This document shows positions 13,297 to 61,851 of a stretch of 64,000 nt of DNA, piece after piece. Source of the stretch: Minisyncoccota bacterium (GTDB lineage: Bacteria; Patescibacteriota; Minisyncoccia; Phycocordibacterales; PALSA-1337); assembly GCA_041671485.1 (NCBI GenBank), contig JBAZBL010000006.1, positions 6,539 through 70,538 on the forward strand, written 5' to 3'. The position numbers were made by a program, and so were the translations under genes. The notes beneath the pieces are model-generated. The model was not told the origin of the DNA, did not search any database, and saw nothing but the letters and a program-made list of their open reading frames with translations. The number at the start of each line of letters is the position of its first letter. Within the stretch, counting starts at the first letter, position 1.

Positions 13297-13443
13297 CCCG
13301 AGGCCCGCCTTCGGCGGGGTAGGCCTCGGGAGTGGATTTTATCATTTCTTCAGCAGAATTTTATCAGGATTTTATCTCATTGTGATATCGTGCAGGTTGT
13401 GGAGGTTTCGTTGCGCAGGTCTACCCTGCGCAACGAAACCTCC
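13297..13443 (+). repeat. Composite repeat element, copy 1: GC hairpin (ggtaggcctcgg type), 42-nt AT-rich motif with three ATTTTATC repeats, TGaTAT box, then a REP hairpin
   Basis: Same layout at 17004-17157 and 42798-42916 (reverse strand). The 42-nt motif lies at 13337-13378 and the REP unit cgcaggtctaccctgcg at 13414-13430. The element ends 10 nt before the comEC start. Confidence 0.7.
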
Positions 13444-13453
13444 GCAAAAACCT

Positions 13454-15598: not shown

Positions 15599-15805
15599 TT
15601 GTCAGTTCTGTATGAAAGCGTTTTACTCTGTGGTAGGGCGCTTTTTCTTTTCCAAACAATACTGATTAGATCAAAAACCAATGTAATATCGCTTCTTCTG
15701 CTTTTCTATTTAAAATTACTTCTAAGGCTATAGTATGAACCTTCAAAGAGGGGTTGCAATTAGCCTGCAAATTCACTCCTCACAATTTGACAAGACTAAT
15801 GATAT

Positions 15806-16321: not shown

Positions 16322-16435
16322 CTGATTTGGGGATTCAATACAATCTAACTGCAATCTGGAATATGGTTGCAGTTGTTTTTTGTCTTTTTCTAAACATCAA
16401 CCCAAAATCTATGTAATGTCACTTATTCTGCTTTT

Positions 16436-17003: not shown

Positions 17004-17157
17004 TTCCCGATGCCTACTCTCGGAGGTCGTCGATTTTATCATTTCTTCAGCGAAATTTTATCAGGATTTTATCTCGATATGATATGGTGCAAGTTGCGGA
17101 GGCCTTGTTGCGCAGGGTAGACCTACGCACAACGTGCGTAGGTCTACCCTGCGCAAC
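17004..17157 (+). repeat. Composite repeat element, copy 2: degenerate GC hairpin, 42-nt ATTTTATC motif, TGaTAT box, then a REP doublet
   Basis: 42-nt motif at 17034-17075. REP doublet cgcagggtagacctacg (17111-17127) and cgtaggtctaccctgcg (17136-17152). Ends 10 nt before the ATG at 17168. Confidence 0.7.
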
Positions 17158-28672: not shown

Positions 28673-29068
28673 ATGACCAATAAATGGCGTAATATAGTTG
28701 GGAATGCAAGAGAAAAATACAAGAAAATGCAACCTGTTGCATGTCCAGCCTTTGGTGGTGAACTAGTGTATTTCAATAAACATGGATTCAATCATCTCAT
28801 AAGAAAAGGTCGAAGATTTCGCAAAATAGATGTCCAAATTGATCGCATTCAATTAATTGGAACAGCTATCGATACCCTGCAAAGATCTTCTACGGTTTAT
28901 CGTTATCGTAAGGTAAATACTGTAAAATCAGTAATGCAGTTCTGGGCATTCGAAGACGATCTCATAATAGATAATAAAAAAGTATCCATAATAGTCGTTG
29001 TCAGAAAAATGAACAATGGTAAAATTCATTTTTTTAGTATATTCAAGAGAAAACACAAAACCCCCTAA
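28673..29068 (+). CDS. Hypothetical basic protein (131 aa)
   Basis: ORF with the conserved AT-rich motif upstream and a terminator overlapping its stop. No recognisable domain. Confidence 0.45.
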   Translation: MTNKWRNIVGNAREKYKKMQPVACPAFGGELVYFNKHGFNHLIRKGRRFRKIDVQIDRIQLIGTAIDTLQRSSTVYRYRKVNTVKSVMQFWAFEDDLIIDNKKVSIIVVVRKMNNGKIHFFSIFKRKHKTP

Positions 29069-29076
29069 GGGGTTTT
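29057..29076 (+). terminator. Perfect hairpin terminator aaaaccccc taa ggggtttt overlapping the stop of ORF 28673
   Basis: 8-bp GC-rich stem flanked by A-run and T-run on either side. Confidence 0.6.
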
Positions 29077-29305
29077 GTAGATCTGCCACCAGCATTTTAC
29101 CGATAACATCAACTTGAGATTAATCTCAATGACATGCAGATCAACAACTTGCCACCAGCTTTAGCCGATAATATCGCCATGGAATCAATCCACCAACCGC
29201 AAGCTATATACTGGTATGCTATCAGAAAATCATAAAAAGTCAAGCCCATGAAATTACTAGATGGATCTATTTTACCACCACTTCATTCATGGTATTATCT
29301 AATAT

Positions 29306-30505
29306 ATGAAAACAGATATAAATAAAGAAAAAATAGAAGAACTTTTTGCTCGTGGCACGGTCGTAGAAATTCTGCCTACAAAAGATGCATTTATTGAAAA
29401 GTTGATGAAGGGCGAAAAATTGAGGATATACATAGGCGTAGATCCAACAGCCGAAGCTTTGCATTTGGGGCATGCCAAAAACATCATGTTTCTAGAAGAA
29501 TTACGACAACTAGGCAATGAAGTTATATTACTTTTTGGTGATTTTACTGCGCGTATAGGGGATCCAACAGGCAAAAGCACTACACGCAAGCAATTGACAG
29601 AAGAAGAAGTCAAGAAAAATGTCTCAAAATGGCTCGATCAAGTGAAGCCACTCATAAATATTGAAGACAAAGAAAATCCAGTAAAGATAATGTACAATTC
29701 CGAATGGTTGGGCAAATTAACATTTGCAGAAATTGTTGACATTGCTTCCAACTTCACAGTTCAACAAATGATAGAGCGTGATATGTTCGAGAAGAGGATA
29801 AAGGATGGCAATCCTATCCATTTGCATGAATTTATGTATCCACTTATGCAAGGTTATGACAGTGTAGCTATGGACGTAGACGCAGAATTGTGTGGTACAG
29901 ATCAGGTTTTCAATGCATTGGCTGGACGTACGCTTCTGAAGAGATATAAAAATAAAGATAAATTTGTTATTGCACTCAACCTAATTGCCAATCCAAAGAC
30001 AAGGGAATTGATGTCCAAGAGCAAAGGCACTGGAGTATTCATAAATACATCTCCAAATGAATTGTATGGAGCTATTATGGCATTGCCAGATCCAATGATA
30101 GAGCCACTATTTATCAATTGTACGAGGATACCCCTGAATGAAAAAGAGTCAATAATGAAATTGGGACCAAGAGATGCAAAAGCATATATAGCACTAGACA
30201 TCGTAAAGAGATTTCATGGCAAAGAGAAAGCCGAAGGTGCGGCAGAAACATTTGAAAAGACTTTTGCGAAAGGTGGTGTGCCAGACGATATTTTGGAAAT
30301 TGTCCTGAAAGATGGTGATGTTCTATCTGATGTTTTAGTCAAGGCTGGAATTGTGCCATCGAAGACAGAATGGAGGAGACTGGTCACAGATGGTGCTGTG
30401 AGGAAAGAAGATGATTCTAAAGTTGATGATATAAATTATCTGCCAAAGGAGACTACTATTCTAAAGATAGGGAAACGCAGGTTTGTGAAAGTGATTGTTC
30501 AGTGA
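29306..30505 (+). CDS. tyrS: Tyrosyl-tRNA synthetase
   Basis: GVDPTAEALHLGH (HIGH motif), KMSKS-like LMSKSKG, C-terminal S4 domain. Confidence 0.9.
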   Translation: MKTDINKEKIEELFARGTVVEILPTKDAFIEKLMKGEKLRIYIGVDPTAEALHLGHAKNIMFLEELRQLGNEVILLFGDFTARIGDPTGKSTTRKQLTEEEVKKNVSKWLDQVKPLINIEDKENPVKIMYNSEWLGKLTFAEIVDIASNFTVQQMIERDMFEKRIKDGNPIHLHEFMYPLMQGYDSVAMDVDAELCGTDQVFNALAGRTLLKRYKNKDKFVIALNLIANPKTRELMSKSKGTGVFINTSPNELYGAIMALPDPMIEPLFINCTRIPLNEKESIMKLGPRDAKAYIALDIVKRFHGKEKAEGAAETFEKTFAKGGVPDDILEIVLKDGDVLSDVLVKAGIVPSKTEWRRLVTDGAVRKEDDSKVDDINYLPKETTILKIGKRRFVKVIVQ

Positions 30506-30514
30506 ATATCTGGT

Positions 30515-30713
30515 CCCCGAGAATAATTGTCATTCTGTGAATCGAGGACTGTTTGAGCGACTATAAATTGCTTGATAAAATGCGTATGTTGTGGGAATTG
30601 CTACGATACTAAGGCATTTCTAATGCCGAAGTATCGAGCAATTCAATAGCATTTTATCTAGCAATTTAAGGAGCGAGTTCCGCAGATTCACAGAATGACA
30701 ATTATTCTCGGGG
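30515..30713. repeat. 199-nt element bounded by perfect 29-nt inverted repeats, with nested inner hairpins (MITE-like or structured RNA)
   Basis: ccccgagaataattgtcattctgtgaatc (30515-30543) and its reverse complement (30685-30713). Inner stem gaattgctacgatact / agtatcgagcaattc encloses ggcatt tcta atgcc. Fills the whole tyrS/comF convergent spacer. Confidence 0.6.
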
Positions 30714-30719
30714 ACATTA

Positions 30720-31397
30720 TTAGTGTGCTAGAGAAATACCTAAAATTCTTTCAAATCCACTTTTTTGTAGTGTATCAATAGCTTCTTTCATCGTACTACC
30801 GGTAGTGATTACATCATCAATGACAATAATTGGTATTTTATTTTGATTTGTGTCATTTTTGATTTTATCTGCAAATATATCATCCACAGAAAATATTCCC
30901 TTTGCATCTGTCAGTCGGTCAGTACGATCTTTGAGTGTTTGCCGATCGGCATGATGAATACGTCTCAAAAGTTCTTTTTCAATCACAAATCGTTTTTCTG
31001 TATCAAGCCTTGCAATTTCATCGGCCAATAATTCACATTGATTGTATCCACGTTCGTTTTTCCTCCTTTTTGTTATTGGTATAGGGATTATGATTCGTGT
31101 ATTCTCTTTTACGAGGTCGGACCTCGTGATCTCAATAAGCTTGCTATAAAGTGCATAACCACCTATCTCTGTCGCTCGTTTAGACTTCTTGTATTTGATA
31201 TTCCATATCAATCTTGTGACACGATCATCTTTATAGGCAAAGGTGGATCTCATATTTGTAAAAGGAGTTTCTGGAGCGCGAGGTAATATCTCCAATGCCT
31301 GTTCTGGCGATAGAGAAAACAACTCTTTTTCTGATTTTGTAGAAGGAAAAAGAGCTTCTAGCATTGTCTTATATATGGTAGTCAGAAAAGTTATCAT
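30720..31397 (-). CDS. comF: ComF-family competence protein (phosphoribosyltransferase fold)
   Basis: C-terminal PRTase motif IIVIDDVITTGSTM. Conserved ComF region IIIPIPITKRRKNERGYNQ. Confidence 0.8.
   Translation of the reverse strand: MITFLTTIYKTMLEALFPSTKSEKELFSLSPEQALEILPRAPETPFTNMRSTFAYKDDRVTRLIWNIKYKKSKRATEIGGYALYSKLIEITRSDLVKENTRIIIPIPITKRRKNERGYNQCELLADEIARLDTEKRFVIEKELLRRIHHADRQTLKDRTDRLTDAKGIFSVDDIFADKIKNDTNQNKIPIIVIDDVITTGSTMKEAIDTLQKSGFERILGISLAH
31111..31127. promoter_or_regulatory. 17-bp palindrome ACGAGGTCGGACCTCGT, copy 3 of 4, the most symmetric copy; lies inside the comF coding region (encodes ITRSDLV)
   Basis: Identical core to the copies at 1411, 10837 and 34141. Confidence 0.35.
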
Positions 31398-31450: not shown

Positions 31451-34141
31451 ATGAAAAAATATTTTGTTATTGTTTTCTCTGCAGTTTTTATCTTTTTGGA
31501 ATTGTATTTTTTGCCGACAGATGCACTTGCACAATGTTCAGGAAGTCCTGATCTTGCAACTCATGCGAGTGAACAGATTGACAGTAGAATAAGCCAAGCA
31601 TCTTCAGGGACTGGTCTCAATTTATTTTCTGATTTTATGTCAACTCTCAATATGACCGGCGCACAACTTGTTTCTCTCACCGATAAACCAAACTCAATGC
31701 AAGAGAACATTGATTCATGGGCAAAGAAGGGAATACCTCTTGATTTTACTGGAGTAGCTACATGGAACGATTGGAATGGATCATCAAATCCTGTTTATCA
31801 GGGCGCGGCTACTCTTATTACACCTAGACATTTTGTAACTGCTACCCACATTAAACTACCCGTTGGAACAAAAGTCACATTTATCAAACCAGATGCGAGT
31901 ACTACTACAAGAATAGTTACTGGTTTTGAGAATATACCAAATAGTGATGTGACTGTAGAGGTGCTTGATAGCGATGTTGATCCCTCCATAAAGTATTACA
32001 AAGTAATAGATATTACAACTTTTTGGAGTCTTCTATCTAAGAATGTTCTTGAAGGGTCTTCAGAAGTTCCAATTGCTGTTTTTAACCAAGGACGACAGCC
32101 TTTTATACATTCCTTGGGTGTAAATTTGGCAAATCCATATAATAAAAATCCATACAATAGTATTCCGCATTATCCAAGTTCTATAAGAGCGAGTTTTAGT
32201 TCTTATGTAGGACCTGGTGATTCTGGTCAACCGGGATTTTTGATTGTTGAAGACACGCCAATACTTCTTTTTGTAAATACAACTAATACTGAAGGGTCAA
32301 ATGTTGGTTCTCGCATTACAGAGATCAATCAAGCTATCAATTCTCTGGGAAGTGGTGGTTATAGCGCAACTCTATATAATTCATCTTGTTTTACAAAATA
32401 CCCGATTACTCCTACTGTCACTTCTATTTTAACAGACGTTGGTTCTATTAGTTGTCTCCAAAATACGCCAACCTGTAGAATGACAATATTTGGTATTGGA
32501 TTCACATCTCAAAATAATACAGTTAAAGTTGGTATATTAGATATTGGTAATATCTCCTCATATAATAATGGTACTGCGATTGATGTTAATATTCCAACTG
32601 ATTTATCTGCTGGTACTTACAATGTTGTGATCTCTAATAGCGAGGGTACATCAAATCCAAAAATATTCATGATGCTAAATAATTCCTCATTTCCATCTAT
32701 CACATCTGTCTCTCCTTCATCTGGTCCAATGGGTTCAACAATCACTCTAATAGGTGCGAATTTCTCAATAAGTGGTACAAATAATATAAAATTTGCACCT
32801 ACTACAGGTTTTAAACCTGAAATTTCTCTTCAATCTACAAATGTAACTCAAAACGGAACTCGTCTTACAGCAACTCTTCCAAACGAAGATTATCCTGTAG
32901 GTACAGTATTTACTATTTGGATTGATAATGCCGAATTTGGCTATAGCGATGAAAATTCATCATATGAGAGAAATCCTAAAACATTTACTGTAGCTTTACC
33001 ACCACCAGTAGTAGAACAAGACACTACTCCTCCTGTTCGAAGTAATGGATTACCATCAAGCACTCTATCAGCCACAACAAATTCTACGAATGTCTCTCTT
33101 AGTACAAATGAATCAGCTGTCTGTCATTGGAGTAGTGGACCAAATAATACTTTTGATCAGATGTCAGGCAGATTTAACAGTTCCAATAATGGAACATCTC
33201 ATTCTGTGAGCGTTACTCTAACTCCTGGTAATTCATATAGTTATTACATAAAGTGTCGTGATCAAGCAGAGAATACAAATACTCAAGATTTTCCTATATT
33301 ATTTGCTGTTGCTAGTTTGCCAGCCGAAGAAAACCCTCCTTCCGATACTACTCCTCCAAATATCTCTATCAATTCTCCATTAAATAATGAATCGTTCGTT
33401 GAGGGTACAAAGACTATCAGTGTTTCTACTTCTGATAATGTGGGTGTAGTCGGTGTTCAATATTATCTAGATGGGACAAGGCTAGATTCCGAAAAGACGA
33501 CAGCACCTTGGACTATTACAAAAACTTTTACTCCTGGTACATACAGTATATATGCAATTGCTCGTGATGTGGCTGGTAATCGCAAGACATCAAATACTAT
33601 TATATTTAATGTAACTAAAAAACCAGTTGTTATTGTCCAACAACAACCAATCATTAATCCTCCAATTATAAATCCTATAAACACTCAACCACCAGTCATG
33701 CCTATTCAAGAAAATGATGAAGTTCCATTCAAGGCCGTTGCTACAGAGATCAATCGCAACCTTGCCCTAAATGATGAAGGTGAAGATGTTCTCCTATTAC
33801 AGAAAGTTCTTAATAAGCTTGGCTATGAAGTTGCTACCAATGGTCCTGGCTCTATTGGTAAAGAAACGACATATTTTGACAATAATACAAAAGAAGCACT
33901 TGCGAAGTATCAATCTGATCATTCTGAAGAAGGGATAGTATCTACTGGCATACTAGATAATGTAACTATGGCTATAATAAATGTCGAAGCAGAAAAGTTG
34001 ATCAAATACACAGAAGATGAAGCAACTTCTACAGATCAGATTCTGGATAAAAGAGTAGAAATAACATCAGTAGCGACTTTCTTTCTGTATATATTTGATA
34101 CATTAAGATTATGGGGATCTAGTATCATCAACTTGTTTTGA
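31451..34141 (+). CDS. Large secreted surface protein (896 aa) with Ig-like repeats and a C-terminal peptidoglycan-binding domain
   Basis: Signal peptide, Ser/Thr/Asn-rich repeats, Big-like modules (DTTPPNISINSP...YAIARDVAGN). PG_binding_1-like LNDEGEDVLLLQKVLNKLGY...EALAKYQ. Confidence 0.7.
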   Translation: MKKYFVIVFSAVFIFLELYFLPTDALAQCSGSPDLATHASEQIDSRISQASSGTGLNLFSDFMSTLNMTGAQLVSLTDKPNSMQENIDSWAKKGIPLDFTGVATWNDWNGSSNPVYQGAATLITPRHFVTATHIKLPVGTKVTFIKPDASTTTRIVTGFENIPNSDVTVEVLDSDVDPSIKYYKVIDITTFWSLLSKNVLEGSSEVPIAVFNQGRQPFIHSLGVNLANPYNKNPYNSIPHYPSSIRASFSSYVGPGDSGQPGFLIVEDTPILLFVNTTNTEGSNVGSRITEINQAINSLGSGGYSATLYNSSCFTKYPITPTVTSILTDVGSISCLQNTPTCRMTIFGIGFTSQNNTVKVGILDIGNISSYNNGTAIDVNIPTDLSAGTYNVVISNSEGTSNPKIFMMLNNSSFPSITSVSPSSGPMGSTITLIGANFSISGTNNIKFAPTTGFKPEISLQSTNVTQNGTRLTATLPNEDYPVGTVFTIWIDNAEFGYSDENSSYERNPKTFTVALPPPVVEQDTTPPVRSNGLPSSTLSATTNSTNVSLSTNESAVCHWSSGPNNTFDQMSGRFNSSNNGTSHSVSVTLTPGNSYSYYIKCRDQAENTNTQDFPILFAVASLPAEENPPSDTTPPNISINSPLNNESFVEGTKTISVSTSDNVGVVGVQYYLDGTRLDSEKTTAPWTITKTFTPGTYSIYAIARDVAGNRKTSNTIIFNVTKKPVVIVQQQPIINPPIINPINTQPPVMPIQENDEVPFKAVATEINRNLALNDEGEDVLLLQKVLNKLGYEVATNGPGSIGKETTYFDNNTKEALAKYQSDHSEEGIVSTGILDNVTMAIINVEAEKLIKYTEDEATSTDQILDKRVEITSVATFFLYIFDTLRLWGSSIINLF

Positions 34142-34201: not shown

Positions 34202-35299
34202 ATGTCGTTTTTCTCTTCATTTTTCAAGAAAGAAGTCAGCGTTCTAGGACTAGATATAGGTTCTTCGGCTATCAAAATAGTACAGATCAAGAAAAAACGG
34301 GGAAGAGCCGTTCTAGAGACTTATGGCGAATTGGCACTTGGTCCTTATGCAGGAGTAGAGATAGGCAGAGCAACTAGTCTACTAACAGAGAAGATAATAG
34401 AAGCAGTAAAAGATATATTACGTGAAGCAAAGACAACTACAGTATCGTGCGGTTCAGCATTACCACTATCTTCTAGTCTCATAACCTTTATCACAATTCC
34501 TGCTGTTTCAGAAAAACAGATTGCAGATGTTATAGCACTAGAAGCACGTAAATATATACCAGTACCACTTAGTGAAGTCATGATTGACTATTCTATAGTT
34601 CCACGCGAAGAAGCATATGCTACAGAAGACGAGACGACCAAAACAGAAAAAGCAGGTAGAGACGTACTTGTAATTGCAGTTCACAATGAATATATCAATT
34701 CGTATCAATCAATATTATCAGGCTCTGGTCTTGTGCCTAGCTTTTATGAAATAGAGATTTTCAGTTCGATCCGTGCTGTTATGGACCAAGGTCTTAGTAC
34801 AAGTATGATTCTCGATTTTGGCGCACGTTCTACCAAGCTATATATCGTAGAGCGTGGAATATTGCGTTCATCACATATCATCAATAAAGGCAGTCAAGAT
34901 ATCACTCTTGCATTGTCAAAAGCATTGTCTATATCTATAAGCGAGGCCGAAAACCTAAAGCGTGTCCGTGGTTTGAAAGGTGGACCAGAATACAAAGAGC
35001 TGACAGAGATCATAACTGTAAATCTTGATTATATATTTTACGAGGCAAATGCTACACTTTTGAGCTATCAAAAGAAATATTCCAAGAATGTAAGTAGAGT
35101 CATACTTACAGGTGGTGGAGTTTTACTCCAAGGATTCACTGATTTGGCAAAGGTCGGTTTCCAAACAGAAGTTTTGTATGCAAATCCATTTGCAAAACTA
35201 GATACACCAGCATTCCTGGGAGAAGAATTTGCAAAAGCAGGACCAGAATTTGCAGTTGCTATAGGTATTGCATTACGTAGATTGTCGGAAGTTGAATAA
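34202..35299 (+). CDS. pilM: Type IV pilus assembly protein PilM (actin-like ATPase)
   Basis: 365 aa. LGLDIGSSAIKIVQI N-terminus with an FtsA/PilM fold. Followed by membrane proteins in pilN/O/P positions. Confidence 0.8.
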   Translation: MSFFSSFFKKEVSVLGLDIGSSAIKIVQIKKKRGRAVLETYGELALGPYAGVEIGRATSLLTEKIIEAVKDILREAKTTTVSCGSALPLSSSLITFITIPAVSEKQIADVIALEARKYIPVPLSEVMIDYSIVPREEAYATEDETTKTEKAGRDVLVIAVHNEYINSYQSILSGSGLVPSFYEIEIFSSIRAVMDQGLSTSMILDFGARSTKLYIVERGILRSSHIINKGSQDITLALSKALSISISEAENLKRVRGLKGGPEYKELTEIITVNLDYIFYEANATLLSYQKKYSKNVSRVILTGGGVLLQGFTDLAKVGFQTEVLYANPFAKLDTPAFLGEEFAKAGPEFAVAIGIALRRLSEVE

Positions 35300-35349
35300 G
35301 TTTACACAGGGTAGACCTGCGTATATACGCAGGTCTACCCTGTGTAAAC
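35300..35349. repeat. REP doublet (REPIN-like) placed just after the pilM stop
   Basis: gtttacacagggtagacctgcg tatata cgcaggtctaccctgtgtaaac, a 50-nt perfect palindrome. Confidence 0.8.
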
Positions 35350-35396
35350 TTATTCACAGCGTAAAAAGACTTTATATCTGATATAATACACAAAGT

Positions 35397-42101: not shown

Positions 42102-42179
42102 TACCTAGAGACTTTCTTTATGCCCCATACGTGGTAAATCATCAAAACCTAGTTTCGGCTAGGTTTTGTGTTTGGGGGA

Positions 42180-42234
42180 GTTTACGCAGGGTAGACCTGC
42201 GGGGGAATCCCCCGCAGGTCTACCCTGCGTAAAC
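42180..42234. repeat. REP doublet (REPIN-like) next to the RAYT gene
   Basis: gtttacgcagggtagacctgcg ggggaatcccc cgcaggtctaccctgcgtaaac, a 55-nt perfect palindrome. Preceded by the pilA terminator aaaacctagtttcggctaggtttt. Confidence 0.8.
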
Positions 42235-42792
42235 TCTAATAATACTACCTTGAGGTCTATTTTCTCCCAAATAGTCTTTATAACTAGAGAATTCGTATTT
42301 CTTTGAGTATTCTATTGCTTGAGCCAAATATTCAGGTTTGGCAGTTTTCATGAGATCTGGTTCATCTATACTATACGGATTCAAGTGTATGTATTGGATC
42401 AAATATCTCAAATATTCATCATTATCAATATGTTTTTCTTTGTATTGTCCTTGAAATATTGTTCCAGAGTGGTCATATTTTCTGTTGTAATACATTGCGT
42501 ATGATGTGCACAGTTTACGAATAAATCTAGTAATACCACCATCAGTTTTTTCTTCTACTCCTATATGAAAATGGTTTGGCATAAGACAATAGGCAAATAT
42601 GTCGACAATTATATCTCGATTATATTGAAACATGTCTAATGGCTTTATACTACGCAGGTCTACCCTGCGTGTATCATTTGCTGTGTAGAGTAGAGTTATA
42701 AATCTTTCATAATCACCCCTATCTAAAAATATTGGTGCTTTATGGGCTCCACGATTGTATATATGATATTTTTCTCCTAATATATGTGACAT
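42220..42792 (-). CDS. IS200/IS605-family Y1 (HUH) transposase of the REP-associated type (RAYT, TnpA_REP-like)
   Basis: 190 aa from ATG 42792 (MSHILGEKYHIYNRG...). HUH motif NHFHIG, catalytic Tyr region YLRYLIQYIHLNP. Flanked by REP hairpins. The ORF-track start at 42828 translates a REP. Confidence 0.8.
   Translation of the reverse strand: MSHILGEKYHIYNRGAHKAPIFLDRGDYERFITLLYTANDTRRVDLRSIKPLDMFQYNRDIIVDIFAYCLMPNHFHIGVEEKTDGGITRFIRKLCTSYAMYYNRKYDHSGTIFQGQYKEKHIDNDEYLRYLIQYIHLNPYSIDEPDLMKTAKPEYLAQAIEYSKKYEFSSYKDYLGENRPQGSIIRVYAG
42653..42669. repeat. Single REP unit inside the RAYT coding region, in frame
   Basis: cgcaggtctaccctgcg encodes part of ANDTRRVDLRSIKP between the first conserved block and the HUH motif. 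Confidence 0.6.
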
Positions 42793-42797
42793 TAAAT

Positions 42798-42916
42798 TTA
42801 CGCAGGGTAGACCTGCGTAAACAACCATATCACACCGAGATAAAATCCTGATAAAATTTTGCTGAAGAAATGATAAAGTTTTTATCCGAGGGTAGGCCTC
42901 GGAGGCCTACCCTCGG
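42798..42916 (-). repeat. Composite repeat element, copy 3 (reverse strand): GC hairpin ccgagggtaggcctc g gaggcctaccctcgg, 42-nt ATTTTATC motif, TGaTATGGT box, REP; directly upstream of the RAYT start
   Basis: 42-nt motif at 42837-42878 (reverse strand). REP cgcagggtagacctgcg at 42801-42817. 31-nt perfect GC palindrome at 42886-42916. Confidence 0.7.
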
Positions 42917-44247: not shown

Positions 44248-44297
44248 GTCCCGCAGGGTAGACCTGCGGGGGATCACGCAGGTCTACCCTGCGGGAC
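44248..44297. repeat. REP doublet (REPIN-like) between pilD and the pseudopilin operon
   Basis: gtcccgcagggtagacctgcg ggggatca cgcaggtctaccctgcgggac. Confidence 0.8.
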
Positions 44298-46663: not shown

Positions 46664-48727
46664 ATGAAAACAGTAGAGAAAAAAGCTACAAAAGAGGCAA
46701 AAGAGCGCCTAAATAAGCTCAAAGAGACGATAGAATACCATCGTTACAATTATCATGTACTCGATAAGCAAGAGATTTCAGCATCGGCACTTGATAGTCT
46801 AAAACATGAATTGGCAATCCTCGAGACAAAATATCCAGAATTGATTACCACTGATTCACCATCACAGAGAGTAGGAGGGGAACCACTTCCAGAATTCAAG
46901 AAGGTAAAACACGTCATACCACAATGGTCTTTAAATGATGCCTTTGCTCCAGAAGAAATACAAGAATTTGATGCAAGAGTAAAAAGGTTCTTGATACAAG
47001 GTGGTATAAATAATCCCAAGCCAACATATACTTGTGAGCATAAGATAGATGGACTAAAAATTGTACTTAATTATGAAAATGGTGTACTAAAGCAAGTTGC
47101 AACTAGAGGAGATGGCATTGTCGGTGAAGATGTTACAAATAATGTGAGAACCATAGATTCTGTACCATTGAAGCTCAAAAAACCATTGTCAATCATCGTT
47201 GAAGGAGAAGCGTGGATGGCAAAGAGTACACTTAAAAGCTTGAATAAAGAACGTATCAAAGATAGAGAAGAGCCATTTGCGAATCCTAGGAATCTAGCGG
47301 CTGGTTCTATTCGCCAACTGGATCCGAAAGTAGTGAGAGAAAGGGGGTTAGATTCATTTATTTATGATATTGCGAGGATTATACCACCGCCTGCGACGGT
47401 CGAGGCGGCTACGATCTTGCCGTCAACACAATTGGCTGAGTTAAATCTTTTAAAGTCGCTTGGTTTCAAGGTAAATAAGCACTATAAACATTGCAACAAT
47501 ATTGAAGAAGTCATTGCATATTGGCGAGAATGGCAAAATAAAATGCCAAAAGAGGATTATTGGGCTGATGGTATTGTAGTAAAAGTAGATGAATTGGAAT
47601 ACCAAAAAATTCTAGGATTTACAGGCAAAGCACCACGTTGGTGTATAGCATTCAAATTCCCAAGTGAAGAAGTTACGACTATTCTAGAAGATATTGTCTT
47701 TCAAGTTGGGCGTATGGGCACTATTACACCAGTTGCTATATTGAAGCCAGTGTCTATAGGAGGTTCAACAGTTTCTAGAGCAACATTACACAATGAAGAT
47801 GAAATAAAACGTCTTGATGTTCACATTGGTGATACTGTCATACTCAAGAAAGCAGGAGATGTAATACCAGATATAGTTGGTATTGTGAAAGAGATGAGGA
47901 AGAGCAATTCTAGACCATTCAAATGGCCTACACATATAGCAGGATGTGGTGGGGATGGAAAGATAGAGAGAGTACCCGGTGAATCGGCATGGAGATGTGT
48001 AAATAAAAATTCTTTTGAACAAGAAAAGCGTAAACTTTACTATTTCACTTCTAAACACTGCTTTGATATTGACGGACTAGGTCCAAAGATCATAGATCTT
48101 TTGCTAGAACACAATCTTATTGCAAGCTCAGATGATATATTTACACTAGAAAAGGGCGATCTCGATAGTTTGCCACGTTTTGCGGATAAATCTGCAGACA
48201 ATCTGATAAAAGCTATTGAAAAAGCAAAGAAGGTGACATTGCCAAGATTTTTGGCCTCACTTTCTATCCCTCAACTAGGAGAAGAGACATCATATGATAT
48301 AGCCAAGAATTTTGGAACAATTGAAAATATTCAAGATGCAACAAAAGAAAAGTTTGAATCAATCTATGGTGTTGGGCCAGTAGTTGCCAAGTCTATTGCA
48401 GATTGGTTCAAAAAAAGTGAAAACCGTAAATTAGTTAGCAATCTACTGAAATACGTGAAGATAATTCCCGATGAATCAAATGCAAATGAAGCCAGTCAAA
48501 TTTTCAACGGTAAATCTTTTGTATTTACTGGTACTTTGCCAACATTGGAGCGTGAAGAAGCACAGCAATTAGTAAGAAAAAATGGAGGGAATGTATCTAG
48601 TTCCGTATCAAGCAAGACTTCATTTGTAGTTGCTGGCGATGATGCTGGGTCAAAGTTAGATAAAGCGAGGAGTTTGGGGGTGAATATAATAGATGAGAGT
48701 GAGTTCCTAAGGCTTTGCGCAGGGTAG
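46664..48727 (+). CDS. ligA: NAD-dependent DNA ligase
   Basis: Adenylation motif KIDG (CEHKIDGLK), OB fold, Zn-finger region, HhH and BRCT domains. Stop codon TAG lies inside a REP unit. Confidence 0.95.
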   Translation: MKTVEKKATKEAKERLNKLKETIEYHRYNYHVLDKQEISASALDSLKHELAILETKYPELITTDSPSQRVGGEPLPEFKKVKHVIPQWSLNDAFAPEEIQEFDARVKRFLIQGGINNPKPTYTCEHKIDGLKIVLNYENGVLKQVATRGDGIVGEDVTNNVRTIDSVPLKLKKPLSIIVEGEAWMAKSTLKSLNKERIKDREEPFANPRNLAAGSIRQLDPKVVRERGLDSFIYDIARIIPPPATVEAATILPSTQLAELNLLKSLGFKVNKHYKHCNNIEEVIAYWREWQNKMPKEDYWADGIVVKVDELEYQKILGFTGKAPRWCIAFKFPSEEVTTILEDIVFQVGRMGTITPVAILKPVSIGGSTVSRATLHNEDEIKRLDVHIGDTVILKKAGDVIPDIVGIVKEMRKSNSRPFKWPTHIAGCGGDGKIERVPGESAWRCVNKNSFEQEKRKLYYFTSKHCFDIDGLGPKIIDLLLEHNLIASSDDIFTLEKGDLDSLPRFADKSADNLIKAIEKAKKVTLPRFLASLSIPQLGEETSYDIAKNFGTIENIQDATKEKFESIYGVGPVVAKSIADWFKKSENRKLVSNLLKYVKIIPDESNANEASQIFNGKSFVFTGTLPTLEREEAQQLVRKNGGNVSSSVSSKTSFVVAGDDAGSKLDKARSLGVNIIDESEFLRLCAG

Positions 48728-48757
48728 ACCTGCGTGAACACGCAGGTCTACCCTGCG
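48718..48757. repeat. REP doublet overlapping the ligA stop codon
   Basis: cgcagggtagacctgcg tgaaca cgcaggtctaccctgcg. The ligA stop is TAG 48725-48727. Confidence 0.8.
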
Positions 48758-48784
48758 CAACCTCAAATGTGATAAACTCACAAT

Positions 48785-49083: not shown

Positions 49084-49158
49084 TGTGTCATCCTCGCGAA
49101 AGCGAGGATCCACAATGTTATGAAAGACATGGATCCTCGCTTTCGCGAGGATGACACA
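49084..49158. repeat. 75-nt palindromic double-hairpin element filling the gatC-gatA spacer
   Basis: gtgtcatcctcgcgaaagcgaggatcca ... tggatcctcgctttcgcgaggatgacac. Each arm contains its own cctcgc gaaa gcgagg hairpin. Confidence 0.6.
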
Positions 49159-55139: not shown

Positions 55140-55275
55140 GCAAAAAGCCCATCACGGGTAGAGTCCGAAGACTCTCATACAAGTTTCCCTGTATGGCGGA
55201 TTACGCGACCCCATGATGGGTTCTTTATGCGTAATCCGACTTCCTTTCGCCATGCCCCAAAAAGAGGTTTAGGCT
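55140..55275. other. About 135-nt densely structured non-coding region (candidate ncRNA or replication/recombination site)
   Basis: Nested stems gagtc cgaa gactc, ggattacgc...gcgtaatcc, cccatgatggg and atggcg...cgccat. Lies between the divergent cassette and ORF 55377. Confidence 0.3.
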
Positions 55276-56325: not shown

Positions 56326-58158
56326 ATGCAAAAATCAGATGTCAATTTATTAGAGATAGCGTTACAGTATTTAAGTTTTGGTCTATCTATAATACCTGTA
56401 AACGGAAAACAGCCGTGCGTAAAGTGGACAGAATACCAAACAAGGAAACCGACTATAGCAGAAATAACTGAATGGTTTTCACATCCGGATGTGACTGGAA
56501 TAGGGATAATTACAGGTTTGATTTCAGGGATTGGCGTTCTGGATATTGATAATGGATCTGACACATCAAGTCTTCAGTTACCGCCTACAGTTGCCGTTAA
56601 AACTGGAGGTGATGGTCAACATCACTACTATAGGTATCCCTTCAATACGGTCATCAGAAATACAACTGGATTACTACCACATATAGATTTCAGAGGTGAC
56701 GGGGGTTATGTTGTCGCGCCACCATCGATGCACCAATCTGGAAATAAATATGAATGGTTGTTGGACTTTAAGCGCGAGGATTTGGCTGATATTCCTGATT
56801 GGCTTCTAACCCGCTTGGTTGGTGAAAAGAGTCATCCGAACATCACGGATATATTAAGTGGCGTCTCTCAAGGGACTAGAAATGAGTCGGCGACAGTGAT
56901 TGTTGGGAAACTGATTCATCATTTGCCATCCTACGAATGGGAAACTTTAGCATGGCCTTACCTTAGATGGTGGAATGATCGAAATCAACCACCACTAGGT
57001 ATGAAGGAGCTTCGTGTTACATATGAATCTATTATTGGCAGAGAAAATAAGAAAGAGCAAAAGCAAGAACAGACACTAAAGATATTACAGTGGAAAGATT
57101 TTGATCAAGTGAAATTTCCCGAAGCGAAGTGGTTAATAAAAGACCTAATACCGACAGGAACTGTCACTATTATTGCCGCCCCATCGGGGGAAAAGAAAAC
57201 ATGGGTGGGTATGGAGATGTCTCGTTGTATAGCTCTCGGTATACCCTTTATCAACCACTTCGAAACGAAAAAGGGTAATGTATTATATATAGAGCAAGAA
57301 ACATCCCAACGCCTAATTCAAGATCGAGGTAGAAAGTTAGGATTCAATCTTGTGAATGATGGTATTTTCCTTCTTAGCCAAGATTCACTTAATTTGAATG
57401 AAGATCGTTCGATACAGTTGTTACATGAGTTTATCGAGAGAAATCATATAGAGTTTGTGGTTATCGATACGCTTAGAAGTGTTGCGGGTGGGATAAAAGA
57501 AGAAAAAGCAGAGGAAATAAGGATGTTCTTTAATCGTCTAAAGCCGTGGAAGGATAAGGGTATAAGCTATTTAGTCCTTGATCACTGTAGAAAGCCTGCA
57601 AGATTTGAGAGTACACAGGTGCCTAAAAAGGAGCAACTACTTGGAAGCCAAGACAAAACAGCCTCCGTTGAGGTGCTTCACATGATAAGAAGTGAGGAAA
57701 AAAGTAATGAGATAATGTTCTACCCAAAGAAATCTAAAGTTGCAAGGGAAATATCCCCGTTCAAAATTTTGATGTTAGATGAAATCACCGAACACGGTGA
57801 GGTTGTGAGGTTGACATATGGCGGAGAGATTGAAGAAAAAAAGTTGAAAGCAGAGGAGGCGGAAGGCATGATAAAAGCATATCTACTGGAATCCAATGAG
57901 CATAGAACATCTAAAGAGATTCAGGAGGCTCTGGACGGAGAAGCTGGGAAGACTGCCATCGAAGATGCGCTTAAAAAAATGCGAGAAGACAAGGAGAATA
58001 TTGTCCATCATGAAAAAGTTGGTCAAGCGTATAAATATTGGATACCAAAAGATAAACCAGATGAGCTTGATATATTTGATGAGGTTCCTAAGTCTGATTT
58101 AGGAAGTCCGCAGACGCTGCTATTAGAAGCTTCAACTGAGCCACAAATTGCTGCCTAG
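56326..58158 (+). CDS. Bifunctional primase-polymerase (Prim-Pol) N-domain fused to a P-loop RecA/DnaB-like ATPase (mobile-element replication protein)
   Basis: Prim-Pol motifs GIGIITGL..GIGVLDIDNGSD and DFRGDGGYVVAPPS. Walker A AAPSGEKKTW. AAA_25-like region VVIDTL. Confidence 0.8.
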   Translation: MQKSDVNLLEIALQYLSFGLSIIPVNGKQPCVKWTEYQTRKPTIAEITEWFSHPDVTGIGIITGLISGIGVLDIDNGSDTSSLQLPPTVAVKTGGDGQHHYYRYPFNTVIRNTTGLLPHIDFRGDGGYVVAPPSMHQSGNKYEWLLDFKREDLADIPDWLLTRLVGEKSHPNITDILSGVSQGTRNESATVIVGKLIHHLPSYEWETLAWPYLRWWNDRNQPPLGMKELRVTYESIIGRENKKEQKQEQTLKILQWKDFDQVKFPEAKWLIKDLIPTGTVTIIAAPSGEKKTWVGMEMSRCIALGIPFINHFETKKGNVLYIEQETSQRLIQDRGRKLGFNLVNDGIFLLSQDSLNLNEDRSIQLLHEFIERNHIEFVVIDTLRSVAGGIKEEKAEEIRMFFNRLKPWKDKGISYLVLDHCRKPARFESTQVPKKEQLLGSQDKTASVEVLHMIRSEEKSNEIMFYPKKSKVAREISPFKILMLDEITEHGEVVRLTYGGEIEEKKLKAEEAEGMIKAYLLESNEHRTSKEIQEALDGEAGKTAIEDALKKMREDKENIVHHEKVGQAYKYWIPKDKPDELDIFDEVPKSDLGSPQTLLLEASTEPQIAA

Positions 58159-58309
58159 TTTCCTAGTACATATATATGTTATGATTACAATGCTACACAA
58201 GGGATTAGGGACGTTATTTATTTTAATTGAGTCCAAAAGCGGGGTAACAGAACTCTCTTGTGTAGCAACTTGAGACGTCCACTGTTACCCCACTTTTGTA
58301 ATTAAAAAT

Positions 58310-59851
58310 ATGAAAAAAGGAATTATATATGTTCGAGTATCATCGAACGAACAAGTACAAGGTACAAGTCTCGATAATCAAGAGAGGGCTTGTTTGGAAT
58401 ATGCGGAGAAAAATAATATTGAGGTGGTAAAGATTTATATTGAGAAAGGGGAATCGGCAACTGCCGCCAATCGTACCGAATTTCTGAAGGCACTGGAGTA
58501 TTGTCGAATACATAGTAAAGAGGTGGAGTCTTTCATTGTTTGGAAGATCGATCGCTTCGCCCGTAATACCACAGACCATTTTGCAGTCCGCGCTAAACTA
58601 ACTCAGTACGGTGTTACTCTCCAATCAGTTACTGAACCAATCACAAATGATCCTAGCGGTAAACTGATGGAGACACTTCTTGCTGGATATGCAGAATTTG
58701 AAAACGATATACGTAAGCAGAGGTGTATTGGTGGCATGCAAGGCAGATTACGTGAGGGAATCTGGTGCTGGTCGCCTCCAATAGGGTATACAAACTCTAT
58801 GAAGATGAAAGACAGAAAGAAAACCTTACCGGATGTTCCGGATGAAGAAAGATTCTACCTGATTCAAAAGGGATTAAAACTATATAAAGCCGGCAATCAC
58901 ACTATTACAGCTCTTGCCCAAGAGAGTAGTAAATGGGGACTTAAAACTCGAACTGGTAGGCCAATGAGAAAACAGTTATGGGATACTATTCTCACCAATA
59001 AATTCTATGCTGGTATCCTCGTCGATCCGTGGAGCCTTGAAGAACAACAAGGACAACATAAGCCTATGATTACTTTAGAAGATTTCAATCACATCCAGAT
59101 GATAAAAAAGAATTTGTCCAACAACGCCACCGCTTCACGACTCTCTACCAATCCCGATTTTCCACTTCGCCGTTTTGTGTTATGTGAATGTCATCATCTC
59201 TATACCGCCTCGTGGAGTACCGGCCGAAGTAAAAAATATGCCTCTTACCACTGTCACGGCAAGCAATGCGTACATTTTGGTCACACTGTTGCCAAAGATA
59301 CGCTCGAAGATGAATTCTATAAGCTTTTACAAAAGGTAGCTCCACAGACTAAGTTCCTTAAACTGTTTGAACGGATCGTTATAGAGACCTATAAAAACCA
59401 ACATACTCTTGTTAAGCAGGAAAAGGATCACTATGAGCGAAATCTATCCAAGTTGGAAGCACGTAAGAAAGAATTGATGGAAATGAGAATAAGCCGTGAG
59501 ATTTCAAAGGAAGACTATAAAGATCTTAAAGATGCTTTGGATAATCAGATTACCAGTCTCCATATCTCAAGAAATGAAGCTCAGATAGAAGAATTTGATA
59601 TGGAGATCGCTATAGCTCACACTACGAAGCTGATCGGTGATGTTGCCAATCAATGGAAGCTTATGAGTCCGATTCAGAAGCAAAAACTTCAGAAATTGGT
59701 GCTACCACAAGGGATCACCTACCAAAAATCGACCGGTACATTTGGAACCGCCATTCTGTCGCCTGTATTCAAGCTTAATGAGACATTTACGGCTATGCCG
59801 TCCGAACTTGTTGCGGGGGTCGGAATCGAACCGACAATCTTCAGGTTATGA
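58310..59851 (+). CDS. Large serine recombinase (phage-integrase-type resolvase/invertase family)
   Basis: Catalytic N-domain IYVRVSSNEQ...DRFARN. Recombinase domain. Zinc ribbon CECHH...YHCHGKQC. Coiled-coil C-terminus. The last 41 nt overlap tRNA-fMet on the opposite strand. Confidence 0.85.
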   Translation: MKKGIIYVRVSSNEQVQGTSLDNQERACLEYAEKNNIEVVKIYIEKGESATAANRTEFLKALEYCRIHSKEVESFIVWKIDRFARNTTDHFAVRAKLTQYGVTLQSVTEPITNDPSGKLMETLLAGYAEFENDIRKQRCIGGMQGRLREGIWCWSPPIGYTNSMKMKDRKKTLPDVPDEERFYLIQKGLKLYKAGNHTITALAQESSKWGLKTRTGRPMRKQLWDTILTNKFYAGILVDPWSLEEQQGQHKPMITLEDFNHIQMIKKNLSNNATASRLSTNPDFPLRRFVLCECHHLYTASWSTGRSKKYASYHCHGKQCVHFGHTVAKDTLEDEFYKLLQKVAPQTKFLKLFERIVIETYKNQHTLVKQEKDHYERNLSKLEARKKELMEMRISREISKEDYKDLKDALDNQITSLHISRNEAQIEEFDMEIAIAHTTKLIGDVANQWKLMSPIQKQKLQKLVLPQGITYQKSTGTFGTAILSPVFKLNETFTAMPSELVAGVGIEPTIFRL

Positions 59852-59882
59852 GCCTGACGAGCTACCGTTACTCTACCCCGCG
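59811..59882 (-). tRNA. Initiator tRNA-fMet (anticodon CAT)
   Basis: Cloverleaf with a C1·A72 mismatch and an A11:U24 pair, both initiator hallmarks. Anticodon loop CUCAUAA. T-arm GTCGG TTCGATT CCGAC. Close to E. coli tRNA-fMet. Confidence 0.85.
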
Positions 59883-59984
59883 ATGTTCTAACTATTTTGC
59901 CACAATTGATGTAGTTGCGCAAGTGAATAAATTTAGATATTGTATAGCTTGAGTATTAGACATGGTTTTTGCTCGATATTCAAT

Positions 59985-60058
59985 GCCGGCGTAGCTCAGG
60001 TAGTTAGAGCATAGCACTCATAAAGCTAAGGTCGCAGGTGCAAGTCCTGCCGCCGGCA
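59985..60058 (+). tRNA. tRNA with anticodon CAT (elongator Met or lysidine-modified Ile2)
   Basis: Acceptor GCCGGCG/CGCCGGC. Anticodon loop CUCAUAA. One A·A mismatch at 31-39. Confidence 0.7.
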
Positions 60059-60185
60059 CAATAGTTTTCGTCAGTATCTTGACTTTCGTAGAATATTTTT
60101 GCTAGAGTATCTTTAATACTTGCTTGCGACCGATGGAGTTGCGCCCAGATCGGTCTATCGCAGAAGCGATGGTGAGCACTATGAC

Positions 60186-60214
60186 AAGCCCCTTACGGGG
60201 CTTGTGCGCTTTTT
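60186..60214 (+). terminator. Rho-independent terminator after the CAT tRNA
   Basis: aagcccc ttac ggggctt followed by gtgcgctttttg. Confidence 0.5.
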
Positions 60215-60281
60215 GTTGATTTTATCCATTACACTAAAGAAGTGTTTGTGACCATTATTCAATTGTGGTATTTTTCTAGTA

Positions 60282-60965
60282 ATGCCAATATACAAAAAGG
60301 TTAATAAAGATTTTTTCAAAGTATGGACTCCAAAGATGTCATATATACTGGGATTCTTTGCTGCTGACGGTTATATGACTCTAAACAAAAGAGGTGCTTA
60401 TTTTTGGAATATTCAAATTACAGACAAAAAATTATTAGAGGATATCAGACGAACAATTGGATCCAATCATAAAATCAGTGTTCGTATTGGAAAAGTGAAT
60501 GAAAGACCTTTGTATCGTTTACAGATTGGTAGCAAGAAAATGTACTATGATCTATTGGCTTTAGGATTTAATCAGGGAAAAACAAAGAGTTTGGCTGTTC
60601 CAAATGTTCCAGCAATATATTTTAGAGATTTTGTCAGAGGTTATTTTGATGGTGATGGTAATGTTTGGAGCGGACATATTCATCGCAATAGACCTAGTAA
60701 TACATTGATTATTACTGTGGTATTTACTTCCAGTTCATTTCAATTTTTATCGGAAATAAGGCGAAGATTACGATTGTTTATGATATTTAAAGGAGTTTTA
60801 AGTAAGGGGAAAGGTAATTATTATAGGTTAGTTTACAGTATTCGTGACTCTTTGAAATTACACGATTTCATGTATAATCATCCTATACTTGCAAAGGATG
60901 ACATTTTTCTTCAAAGGAAGAGAATTATATTCGAGAAGTACTTAAAGATACGAATGCGGCCGTAG
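60282..60965 (+). CDS. LAGLIDADG homing endonuclease (double-motif)
   Basis: Two LAGLIDADG motifs, LGFFAADGYM and GYFDGDGNV. The TAG stop overlaps the first 10 nt of tRNA-Asp. Confidence 0.85.
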   Translation: MPIYKKVNKDFFKVWTPKMSYILGFFAADGYMTLNKRGAYFWNIQITDKKLLEDIRRTIGSNHKISVRIGKVNERPLYRLQIGSKKMYYDLLALGFNQGKTKSLAVPNVPAIYFRDFVRGYFDGDGNVWSGHIHRNRPSNTLIITVVFTSSSFQFLSEIRRRLRLFMIFKGVLSKGKGNYYRLVYSIRDSLKLHDFMYNHPILAKDDIFLQRKRIIFEKYLKIRMRP

Positions 60966-61029
60966 CGAAACTGGTTATCGCACCGCCCTGTCACGGCGGG
61001 GATTGCGGGTTCGAGTCCCGTCGGCCGCG
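60956..61029 (+). tRNA. tRNA-Asp (GTC)
   Basis: Anticodon loop CUGUCAC. T-arm GCGGGTTCGAGTCCCGT identical to E. coli tRNA-Asp. Discriminator G. Confidence 0.9.
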
Positions 61030-61106
61030 CATAGGAAATCACTCAACATTCTGTTTTATTACGTCCACCAAAAGAGTGCTATAATTCACCATAGAAAGAG
61101 GTTCAT

Positions 61107-61535
61107 ATGAGAACGTTAACAATGCTAGTTGCAGTGATCAGTTTCACTCTATTTGCCAATGCTGGCGAAAAGAGATCTGGGCTGGAGGGTGAGATGCCCA
61201 ATAGCTTGACGAATCACATTCTCGCAGTCGAGATGTCCAAAGGTGGGTCTTTGGAACCAATTGACACAAAAGATTTCCACAATATGATCATTCAGTACTT
61301 GGTAAGAATGAATACGAATGAGACTTTTGGTCCTTTGTGGAAAGGTATGGAATTTGAATCCGAAAGTTTCTACATCGGCTGGAAGCAGGGCCGAGATGAA
61401 TTTCGGTTCAACTTCCTGCCAGTGACAAGACGAGGATTTCGAGCGGGTGGTATGATAGTCAGTGAATATCCGCTTGCACCAAACAATCTTCGAGATTGTT
61501 ACTTTGTCGGTCTATTTGTCTCGCGACATTTTTGA
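61107..61535 (+). CDS. Hypothetical secreted protein (142 aa), markedly higher GC
   Basis: Signal peptide MRTLTMLVAVISFTLFANA. Followed by the terminator gcggtcgtgttcggaacacgaccgc plus a T-run. Confidence 0.45.
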   Translation: MRTLTMLVAVISFTLFANAGEKRSGLEGEMPNSLTNHILAVEMSKGGSLEPIDTKDFHNMIIQYLVRMNTNETFGPLWKGMEFESESFYIGWKQGRDEFRFNFLPVTRRGFRAGGMIVSEYPLAPNNLRDCYFVGLFVSRHF

Positions 61536-61562
61536 GGACTAGCGAGACAGGGTGGGGAAGAT

Positions 61563-61596
61563 GCGGTCGTGTTCGGAACACGACCGCTTTTATTTC
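61563..61596 (+). terminator. Rho-independent terminator
   Basis: gcggtcgtg ttcggaa cacgaccgc then ttttatttc. Confidence 0.6.
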
Positions 61597-61673
61597 GATT
61601 GAAAAGCTGTGATTTCTGTATTATGATGCAATGACTGCCAATGTAACTCTTTTGGTGGTAGATATATAAATAT

Positions 61674-61746
61674 GCCAAGATAGCTCAGTTGGTAGAGCAC
61701 GCCATTGGTAATGGCGAGGTCCCGAGTTCAATCCTCGGTCTTGGCT
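61674..61746 (+). tRNA. tRNA-Thr (GGT)
   Basis: Anticodon loop UUGGUAA. Canonical cloverleaf close to E. coli tRNA-Thr(GGU). Confidence 0.9.
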
Positions 61747-61851
61747 CCCCACTCCGCCTCACCCCTTATGGGTTGAGGCTTCGCGGGGCAAGCCCACAAT
61801 GTAGTTGTGCTTGCACCGCGAAGCTCCGACTGGAAGGAGGAGCGAAGTGGT

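Follow-up and report, generated by a model that had tools for sequence, protein, structure and literature searches.

How has a junction between two convergent genes, 0-27 nt long in most relatives, come to hold ~200 nt of additional palindromic DNA together with what looks like the footprint of a transposition? The locus lies in a stretch of 64,000 nucleotides (hereafter the window) of contig JBAZBL010000006.1, which belongs to an uncultured Patescibacteria (Candidate Phyla Radiation, CPR) bacterium labelled Candidatus Paceibacterota in the NCBI records of metagenome-assembled genomes (MAGs), and the DNA in question is a 203-nt quasi-palindromic element between tyrS and a comF-family gene. To our knowledge, CPR/Patescibacteria have small genomes with tightly packed genes, and little has been described of the repeats and mobile elements in them; we found no paper on miniature inverted-repeat transposable elements (MITEs) in this group. 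We suggest that the element is an orphan relic of two nested miniature mobile elements, that is, non-coding palindromic DNA, and we give this reading about an even chance of being right.

The first question is whether the DNA was gained in this lineage or lost in others. The tyrS and comF genes are convergent with a spacer of 214 nt, and both gene calls bear out the location given in the preliminary description of this locus. That description had the element fill the spacer exactly; it occupies nearly all of it, with 7 nt remaining between tyrS and its left end and 4 nt between its right end and the comF stop codon. Thirteen relatives that keep the convergent tyrS/comF pair were used for comparison. 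Their spacers measure -4, 0, -4, 483, -4, 2, 27, 120, 2, 1, 80, 2 and 23 nt, i.e., between -4 and 27 nt in 10 of the 13; a comparable hairpin is present in the spacer of none of them, and the larger spacers (L006, L010 and L052) contain nothing comparable to the element. In the closest relative, L083 (TyrS 90% and ComF 82% identical), the DNA is ~88-90% identical up to both gene ends, and the spacer of 23 nt holds a single repetitive extragenic palindromic (REP) unit, GCACAGGGTAGACCTGCGC, and none of the 203 nt. The nearest species representatives reach a TyrS identity of 73-74%, and no near-identical cluster mates of this TyrS were found. ComF terminates in ..S[LV]AH* in all relatives and TyrS ends a few residues past KRRFVK, so that abutting or overlapping stop codons are the ancestral arrangement. 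Judged by these sequence comparisons, the element is a lineage-specific insertion that is absent from the orthologous slot of the 13 relatives. Moreover, blastn revealed no similarity of any part of the element to its flanks, to the 64-kb window or to ~16 kb more of the genome (~80 kb altogether); thus, ~100 nt of unique sequence came from elsewhere. The left flank CAGTGAATATCTG may be a decayed REP core, a weak resemblance (9/13 identical to CAGGGTAGACCTG; 11/22 across the full REP); in L083, the corresponding position is occupied by the REP core CAGGGTAGACCTG.

The second question concerns what the insertion consists of. The features and their coordinates are collected in Table 1. The terminal inverted repeats (TIRs) had been described as perfect, which they are, with a length of 29 nt, which has to be extended to 31 nt, so that the element measures 203 rather than 199 nt. 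Between these outer arms lies an interior of 141 nt (30544-30684), in which the stretch from the arms to a middle inverted repeat is not palindromic. The middle repeat, missed previously, has a core of 20 nt that is 95% complementary (30564-30583 / 30649-30668) and reaches 22-23 nt with one bulge. The analysis confirms the inner stem of the preliminary description (30595-30610 / 30630-30644; one A is bulged) and corrects its apex, GGCATT-TCT-AATGCC, to a 3-nt loop, TCT (30619-30621). The inner piece is composed of four related ~20-nt AATTGCTnGATA units with an invariant AATTGCT..GATA, two per arm, the right-arm pair being spaced 23 nt; units U2 and U3 have diverged from the inner TIR unit, of which they are copies.

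The boundaries of the inner piece carry the evidence for its mode of arrival. A 6-bp direct repeat, GAGCGA, directly abuts the extended middle repeat on both sides (GAGCGA-CTATAAATTGC...GCAATTTAAG-GAGCGA) and was the sole non-trivial flanking repeat in a systematic scan of all inverted-repeat boundaries. The chance of a 6-mer repeat at exact adjacency in this window is 3e-4, or 5e-3 with a slack of +-3 nt. By its sequence and placement, the repeat looks like the signature of a target-site duplication. Removal of the 110-nt inner piece together with one GAGCGA yields an 87-nt hairpin with a perfect 31-bp stem and a loop region of ~25 nt (-59.7 kcal/mol), which is similar in size to other hairpin elements of the genome, e.g., a 75-nt palindrome at 49084-49158. 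A check for target-site duplications of 2-9 bp, suggested along with the preliminary description, gave this candidate at the inner element and nothing at the outer ends.

Table 1 Features of the tyrS/comF junction and of the sequences that support it (positions refer to the window)
Feature	Position	Strand	Remarks
tyrS (tyrosine--tRNA ligase)	29306-30505	+	PF00579; 3' end toward the element
Left flank CAGTGAATATCTG	30500-30512	+	Contains the tyrS stop codon
Whole quasi-palindromic insertion, 203 nt	30513-30715		Rod-like hairpin on either strand
Outer left arm GTCCCCGAGAATAATTGTCATTCTGTGAATC, 31 nt	30513-30543	+	31/31 complementary to the right arm
Outer loop region, left part GAGGACTGTTT	30544-30554		Poorly paired
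GAGCGA, left copy of the 6-bp direct repeat	30555-30560	+	Putative target-site duplication
Inner 110-nt palindromic MITE-like element	30561-30670		In the loop of the outer hairpin; alone folds at -48.7 kcal/mol
Inner left TIR CTATAAATTGCTTGATAAAATGC, unit U1	30561-30583	+	
Innermost 50-nt hairpin	30595-30644		Arms are units U2/U3, GAATTGCTACGATACT.. / ..AGTATCGAGCAATTC
Inner right TIR GCATTTTATCTAGCAATTTAAG, unit U4	30649-30670	-	Against the left TIR: 1 mismatch and 1 bulge
GAGCGA, right copy of the 6-bp direct repeat	30671-30676	+	
Outer loop region, right part GTTCCGCA	30677-30684		
Outer right arm, 31 nt	30685-30715	-	Reverse complement of GTCCCCGAGAATAATTGTCATTCTGTGAATC
ComF-family gene	30720-31397	-	Weak Pribosyltran match; JGI name ComF; 3' end toward the element
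Ends that would bound a parent transposase gene			CTATAAATTGCT... or GTCCCCGAGAAT...
Logan contig L002 (SRR6484324)			tyrS side; ends 30 nt into the left arm
Logan contigs L087 (SRR6484324) and L088 (SRR18595301)			comF side; end 30 nt into the right arm

The reading of the element as a nested relic starts from what is directly established, i.e., an insertion with TIRs, a repeat flanking its inner part and symmetry at the DNA level, with no signatures of an RNA or a terminator, and would involve two steps. In the first, an 87-nt hairpin element would have arrived in the near-zero tyrS/comF spacer, where the sister lineage has a REP, by a route that leaves no duplication or with a duplication that has since decayed. 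In the second, a 110-nt MITE-like element with ~22-nt TIRs would have transposed into the loop of the outer hairpin, duplicating its target GAGCGA, presumably through a cut-and-paste DDE-type transposase that was supplied in trans and made a staggered 6-bp cut. The present-day element would be passive: read-through transcripts of tyrS and comF would carry a near-perfect 3' hairpin of ~80 bp that could recruit RNase III or stand in the way of 3' exonucleases or of polymerase read-through, without being shaped for that. The genomic context is supportive, as palindromic repeat elements abound in the genome, which also carries a REP-flanked gene for a Y1/HUH transposase.

Several observations weigh against this history. 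Allowing for the choice of boundaries and for the nesting levels, the chance of the GAGCGA repeat rises to ~0.003-0.015, which is good and not conclusive, and in the same boundary scan the outer 31-nt arms were found without a target-site duplication (flanks ATATCTG and ATTA). The outer arm occurs at two places only in the window (chance expectation none, even with 3 mismatches), and searches for further copies of the outer arm, the inner TIR or the unit found none in the window and the ~16 kb more of the host genome, a sample that covers perhaps ~10% of it (a guess from typical CPR genome sizes), or in ~0.6 Mb of related Paceibacteria loci (blastn-short and a fuzzy TIR-pair search); the unit motif AATTGCTNGATA was likewise not found elsewhere in the window or the related loci. 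Scans of larger collections demanded exact matches of 19-24 bases, and the host MAG is absent from these DNA collections. They returned no exact outer-arm 20-mer in GTDB species representatives, JGI metagenomes or IMG/VR, no outer-end pair with a gap of 160-190 nt in JGI metagenomes and no inner TIR 19-mer in IMG/VR, and the whole element had no blastn match among phage and plasmid records. The search for further copies of the arm that had been recommended at the outset was thus negative in ~80 kb of the genome and in the collections scanned. A parent insertion sequence (IS) or transposase with matching ends was not found in the GTDB, JGI and IMG/VR scans, and the window contains no transposase besides the Y1 gene at 42220-42828.

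One further point concerns the uneven decay of the palindrome. Its two halves agree at 85 of 109 alignment columns, and every difference is interior, the outer 31 nt being perfect. Uniform decay would leave 31 perfect positions ~1% of the time (a rough estimate), and therefore the ends are either constrained, homogenised or young. Selection or gene conversion acting on the stem could account for a perfect 31-bp stem over a decayed interior, and this too counts against a relic.

Another important question is how the element compares with known systems. MITEs are defined as short elements with TIRs and flanking direct repeats that encode no transposase and fold into long stem-loops (Delihas 2011, PMC3184786). 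The element is like the hairpin-folding MITEs ERIC, YPAL, Correia and RUP (PMC3184786) in its size (203 bp, with an inner piece of 110 bp), its TIRs, the lack of an open reading frame (ORF), the intergenic position at gene 3' ends, the long RNA stem-loop and the presence/absence between related genomes, and its inner piece has a flanking direct repeat resembling a target-site duplication. The combination of TIRs, a short non-coding core below the ~400 bp usual for MITEs and no transposase ORF is found here as well. Unlike those MITEs, it is known from one copy, has no known parent IS, lacks a target-site duplication at the outer arms and consists of two or three apex-nested palindromes instead of one TIR pair around a core. 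Among the three readings offered in the preliminary description, a MITE-like nature nevertheless fits best (insertion, TIRs, no ORF, inner 6-bp repeat), although the outer duplication, a second copy and a parent IS were not found.

REP doublets forming hairpins (REPINs), which are mobilised by REP-associated tyrosine transposases (RAYTs; PMC3116915, PMC3337134), provide the second comparison. Like REPINs, the element is a symmetric hairpin whose ends are highly conserved and whose middle is less so, its outer part has no target-site duplication, and it is extragenic and lies between convergent genes, sites toward which REPs are biased; the genome, moreover, has a REP-flanked Y1/HUH transposase and several REPIN-like perfect palindromes. 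Unlike REPINs, its arms contain neither the genome's REP CGCAGGGTAGACCTGCG nor the GGGTAG core, it is a singleton and not a population, and it is 2-4x longer than the REPIN-like units of the window. In a REPIN system the RAYT is flanked by the same repeat, whereas the RAYT-like gene here is flanked by CGCAGGGTAGACCTGCG and not by the arms of the element. The earlier statement that the element is unrelated to the REP families was correct by sequence (blastn; 0 of the 11 REP core sites fall in 30513-30715). Membership in either family, MITE or REPIN, is unproven, and we file the element as an orphan of a familiar kind.

Palindromes are also known targets of IS elements (PMC1525189). As in the insertions of IS1397, ISKpn1 and ISPpu9 into REPs (PMC1525189, PMC12288879), the inner element sits in the apical loop of what would be a pre-existing hairpin, and the slot is taken by a REP in the sister genome; unlike in those cases, no transposase gene is present here, and targeting would be deduced from a single case. 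The three palindromes nested apex-in-apex and the REP in the slot of the sister genome form the basis for a bolder idea, namely, a family of CPR/Patescibacteria miniature palindromes that target the apical loops of hairpins and would be mobilised via single-stranded hairpin DNA by an HUH/Y1 or other transposase. We consider it improbable that such a family exists or, alternatively, that the 31-bp arms are recombination sites of a reversible switch; either, if true, would be the first description for the phylum. Additional copies in the full MAG would indicate that miniature elements are active, and that insertion is targeted to hairpins, in the reduced genome of a symbiont; if it is a lone orphan, the element has little wider consequence.

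Could the palindrome have been generated locally instead? Template switching or inverted duplication, with homogenisation by hairpin-templated repair, could have produced a structure that was then kept as a 3' insulator, terminator or stabiliser for tyrS and comF, an explanation that we find rather unlikely. The position exactly between two 3' ends speaks for it, and a hairpin between converging genes is also the arrangement of intrinsic bidirectional terminators. The stem is extremely stable on both strands: the RNA is predicted to fold into a single rod at -113.1 kcal/mol (z -15.4) for the + strand and -107 kcal/mol (z -19.0) for the - strand, the DNA folds at -70.5 kcal/mol (z -15.8), and 0 of 200 shuffles folded as well as the element. 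The perfect outer 31 bp over the decayed interior could reflect selection at the base of the stem, perfect hairpins occur in other intergenic spacers of the genome too, and the end of tyrS, TTCAGTGAAT, shows a weak direct match (9/10) to the inner end of the arm, TTCTGTGAAT.

However, neither strand has a T/U run after the stem (tails GGGGACATTATTA on + and GGGGACCAGATAT on -), and a scan of 30200-31000 gave 0 terminator-like sites, whereas the genome has ordinary short terminators elsewhere (16346-16375, with TTTTTT; 15614-15645; 29054-29079; and 42143-42172). Intrinsic terminators are short G+C-rich stem-loops with 5-15 paired positions, followed directly by a U-tract, compared with ~80 paired positions, no U/A tracts and absence from relatives here. 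All predicted pairs, 78 on the + and 82 on the - strand, are Watson-Crick, with no G-U pair. In most relatives the stop codons overlap or abut and a hairpin is lacking, the ~100 nt of unique sequence cannot be traced to a local source, and an inverted duplication leaves the GAGCGA direct repeat unexplained. The long bidirectional terminator proposed in the preliminary description is thus not upheld, and the evidence does not bear out the accompanying rule that uniqueness in the genome would favour a simple terminator.

The perfect arms invite a third explanation, in which the 31-bp repeats are recombination sites and a site-specific recombinase flips the 141-bp interior, which could switch antisense transcription into tyrS or comF. 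Perfect repeats of tens of bp around a segment of 100-300 bp characterise invertible switches (fimS-type, Bacteroides invertons), and perfect arms with a diverged interior would be expected if recombination homogenises the repeats; moreover, a sigma-70-like match with an extended -10 lies inside the segment (30553-30581), and the window contains a serine recombinase gene (58310-59851). We nonetheless hold this explanation to be very improbable. Unlike a switch, the segment lies between two 3' ends, which leaves no gene to be switched, its promoter-like matches are at chance level (2 seen vs 2.4 expected), its near-palindromic interior would change little upon flipping, and there is no recombinase within +-10 kb. 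The serine recombinase, a large one of 513 aa, is encoded 27 kb away, with Prim-Pol, LAGLIDADG and tRNA genes as neighbours, and is more likely the integrase of an island.

A structured small RNA had also been considered at the outset; it would be a free-standing gene with its own promoter, e.g., for a 6S-like rod. A rod of ~200 nt with internal loops approaches 6S RNA in size and shape, and the z-scores of the folds (-15 to -19) would agree with a structured RNA, but we regard such a gene as highly improbable. The Rfam scan recommended earlier gave no match at the gathering score for the element, and at E<=10 it gave only chance matches to microRNA and small nucleolar RNA models (best E 0.068, a plant microRNA model). 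Both strands fold equally well, promoter and terminator signals do not exceed chance, the longest ORF touching the element has 28 aa, and the absence from all relatives leaves neither conservation nor covariation. Taken together, the lack of G-U pairs, of a U-tract, of an Rfam match and of an ORF argues against both a terminator and an RNA gene, and the small-RNA explanation is effectively refuted by the absence of the element from the 90%-identical relative.

Last, a fold-back chimera from the assembler or from amplification is scarcely credible: inverted-repeat junctions are a known source of chimeras and, among the sequences recovered, the 141-nt interior is present only in the k141 contig, but an imperfect palindrome with indels, a direct repeat and nested units is unlike a fold-back product. 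The window matches ENA contig k141_132162 (MEGAHIT k141), and the element lies in the middle of this 70-kb contig, flanked on either side by intact genes. The same gene-to-arm junctions occur in three Logan contigs, which were assembled from two other read sets and all terminate exactly 30 nt inside the arm (Table 1); the 214-aa ComF call led to two of them, both reaching the arm only. Logan contigs are assembled with k=31, and a de Bruijn graph of this k is broken by an inverted repeat of 31 nt, so the contigs end at the arm as expected, and the recurrence of the junctions in other read sets independently supports the arms and both junctions. In practical terms, a perfect repeat of 31 nt interrupts k=31 assemblies precisely where the element lies.

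A few other candidates were dropped: an attC site (no GTTRRRY ends), a dif site or origin (the cumulative GC skew is monotonic over the window), a retron or diversity-generating retroelement (no reverse transcriptase nearby) and a small-protein gene (ORFs of <=28 aa). A likeness of the outer arm to the spacer of the relative L085 was also discarded, being a mirror image only and not a reverse complement. In this relative (81% TyrS identity; L084 5192-5228 / L085 1260-1334), an inverted repeat CAGGGGC...GCCCCTG follows tyrS, with a distance of ~55 nt between its parts; one Logan contig stops within this repeat, comF is not reached, and the slot may hold another palindromic element there.

The REPs of this genome merit a separate description. 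The REP core is found at 11 sites in the 64 kb, and the same REP lies at the tyrS stop codon of L083 (position 5199). REPIN-like perfect palindromes at 13397-13447, 17107-17157, 35293-35356, 42178-42236, 44248-44297 and 48715-48760 are inverted doublets of one REP with 22-32-nt arms and 0-8-nt loops, situated in intergenic spacers. The RAYT-like gene (42220-42828, - strand) encodes 202 aa with a PF01797 Y1_Tnp match (E 2.6e-8) and the motifs HFH and YIHLNPY. Copies of the REP CGCAGGGTAGACCTGCG lie on both sides of the gene and one lies in frame within it, and a variant palindrome, CCGAGGGTAGGCCTCCGAGGCCTACCCTCGG, occurs upstream; palindromes at or near the gene are located at 42178-42236, 42651-42670, 42797-42819 and 42870-42915. 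REP-RAYT systems have been described mainly from Proteobacteria, and a RAYT-like gene in a Patescibacterium may merit attention.

Long palindromes other than REPs are also present in this genome and its relatives. The 75-nt perfect palindrome at 49084-49158, between gatC and gatA, has 29-nt arms and a 17-nt loop; each arm holds a hairpin, ATCCTCGC-GAAA-GCGAGGAT, and it is apparently single-copy and differs in sequence from the element. Unrelated long inverted-repeat hairpins were noted in other Paceibacteria (L005 5556-5688, L048 7629-7820, L052 4815-4927, L032 7265-7415 and L066 5572-5694). Roughly ten of them occur in ~0.6 Mb, with perfect arms of 19-31 nt and interiors of 50-140 nt and with a sequence and context different from those of the element; the L005 hairpin is G+C-rich and lies inside a comF-like ORF. 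Lineage-specific long palindromes may thus be a general feature of Paceibacteria genomes. In three distant Paceibacteria, the interval between pilB (T2SSE) and ruvB contains a conserved structured element of ~130-155 nt (L011 7578-7733, L037 7678-7825, L062 7951-8082), whose 17-bp closing stem is near-invariant (ATAAAyCTCTAAGCAAT / ATTGCTTAGAGrTTTAT) and whose branched interior varies. It has no Rfam match even at E<=1, is unrelated in sequence to the 203-nt element and may be an undescribed RNA or an inverted-repeat-bounded element.

Two further observations concern the surroundings of the locus. An 896-aa surface-type protein with Big_7 and PG_binding_1 domains is encoded at 31451-34141 (+), between comF and pilM. 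In L083, L003, L004 and L078, pilM directly follows comF, and therefore the gene for this protein has also been gained in this lineage, beside the hairpin insertion. Farther away, a LOOT RNA, a class for which we know of no function, is located at 55160-55275 on the - strand (Rfam RF03000, 72.7 bits). The region beside it (56326-61924) carries a Prim-Pol/AAA_25 gene, the large serine recombinase gene, a LAGLIDADG-type ORF and five tRNA genes. Together with the LOOT RNA, it probably represents a mobile element that integrated next to a tRNA cluster.

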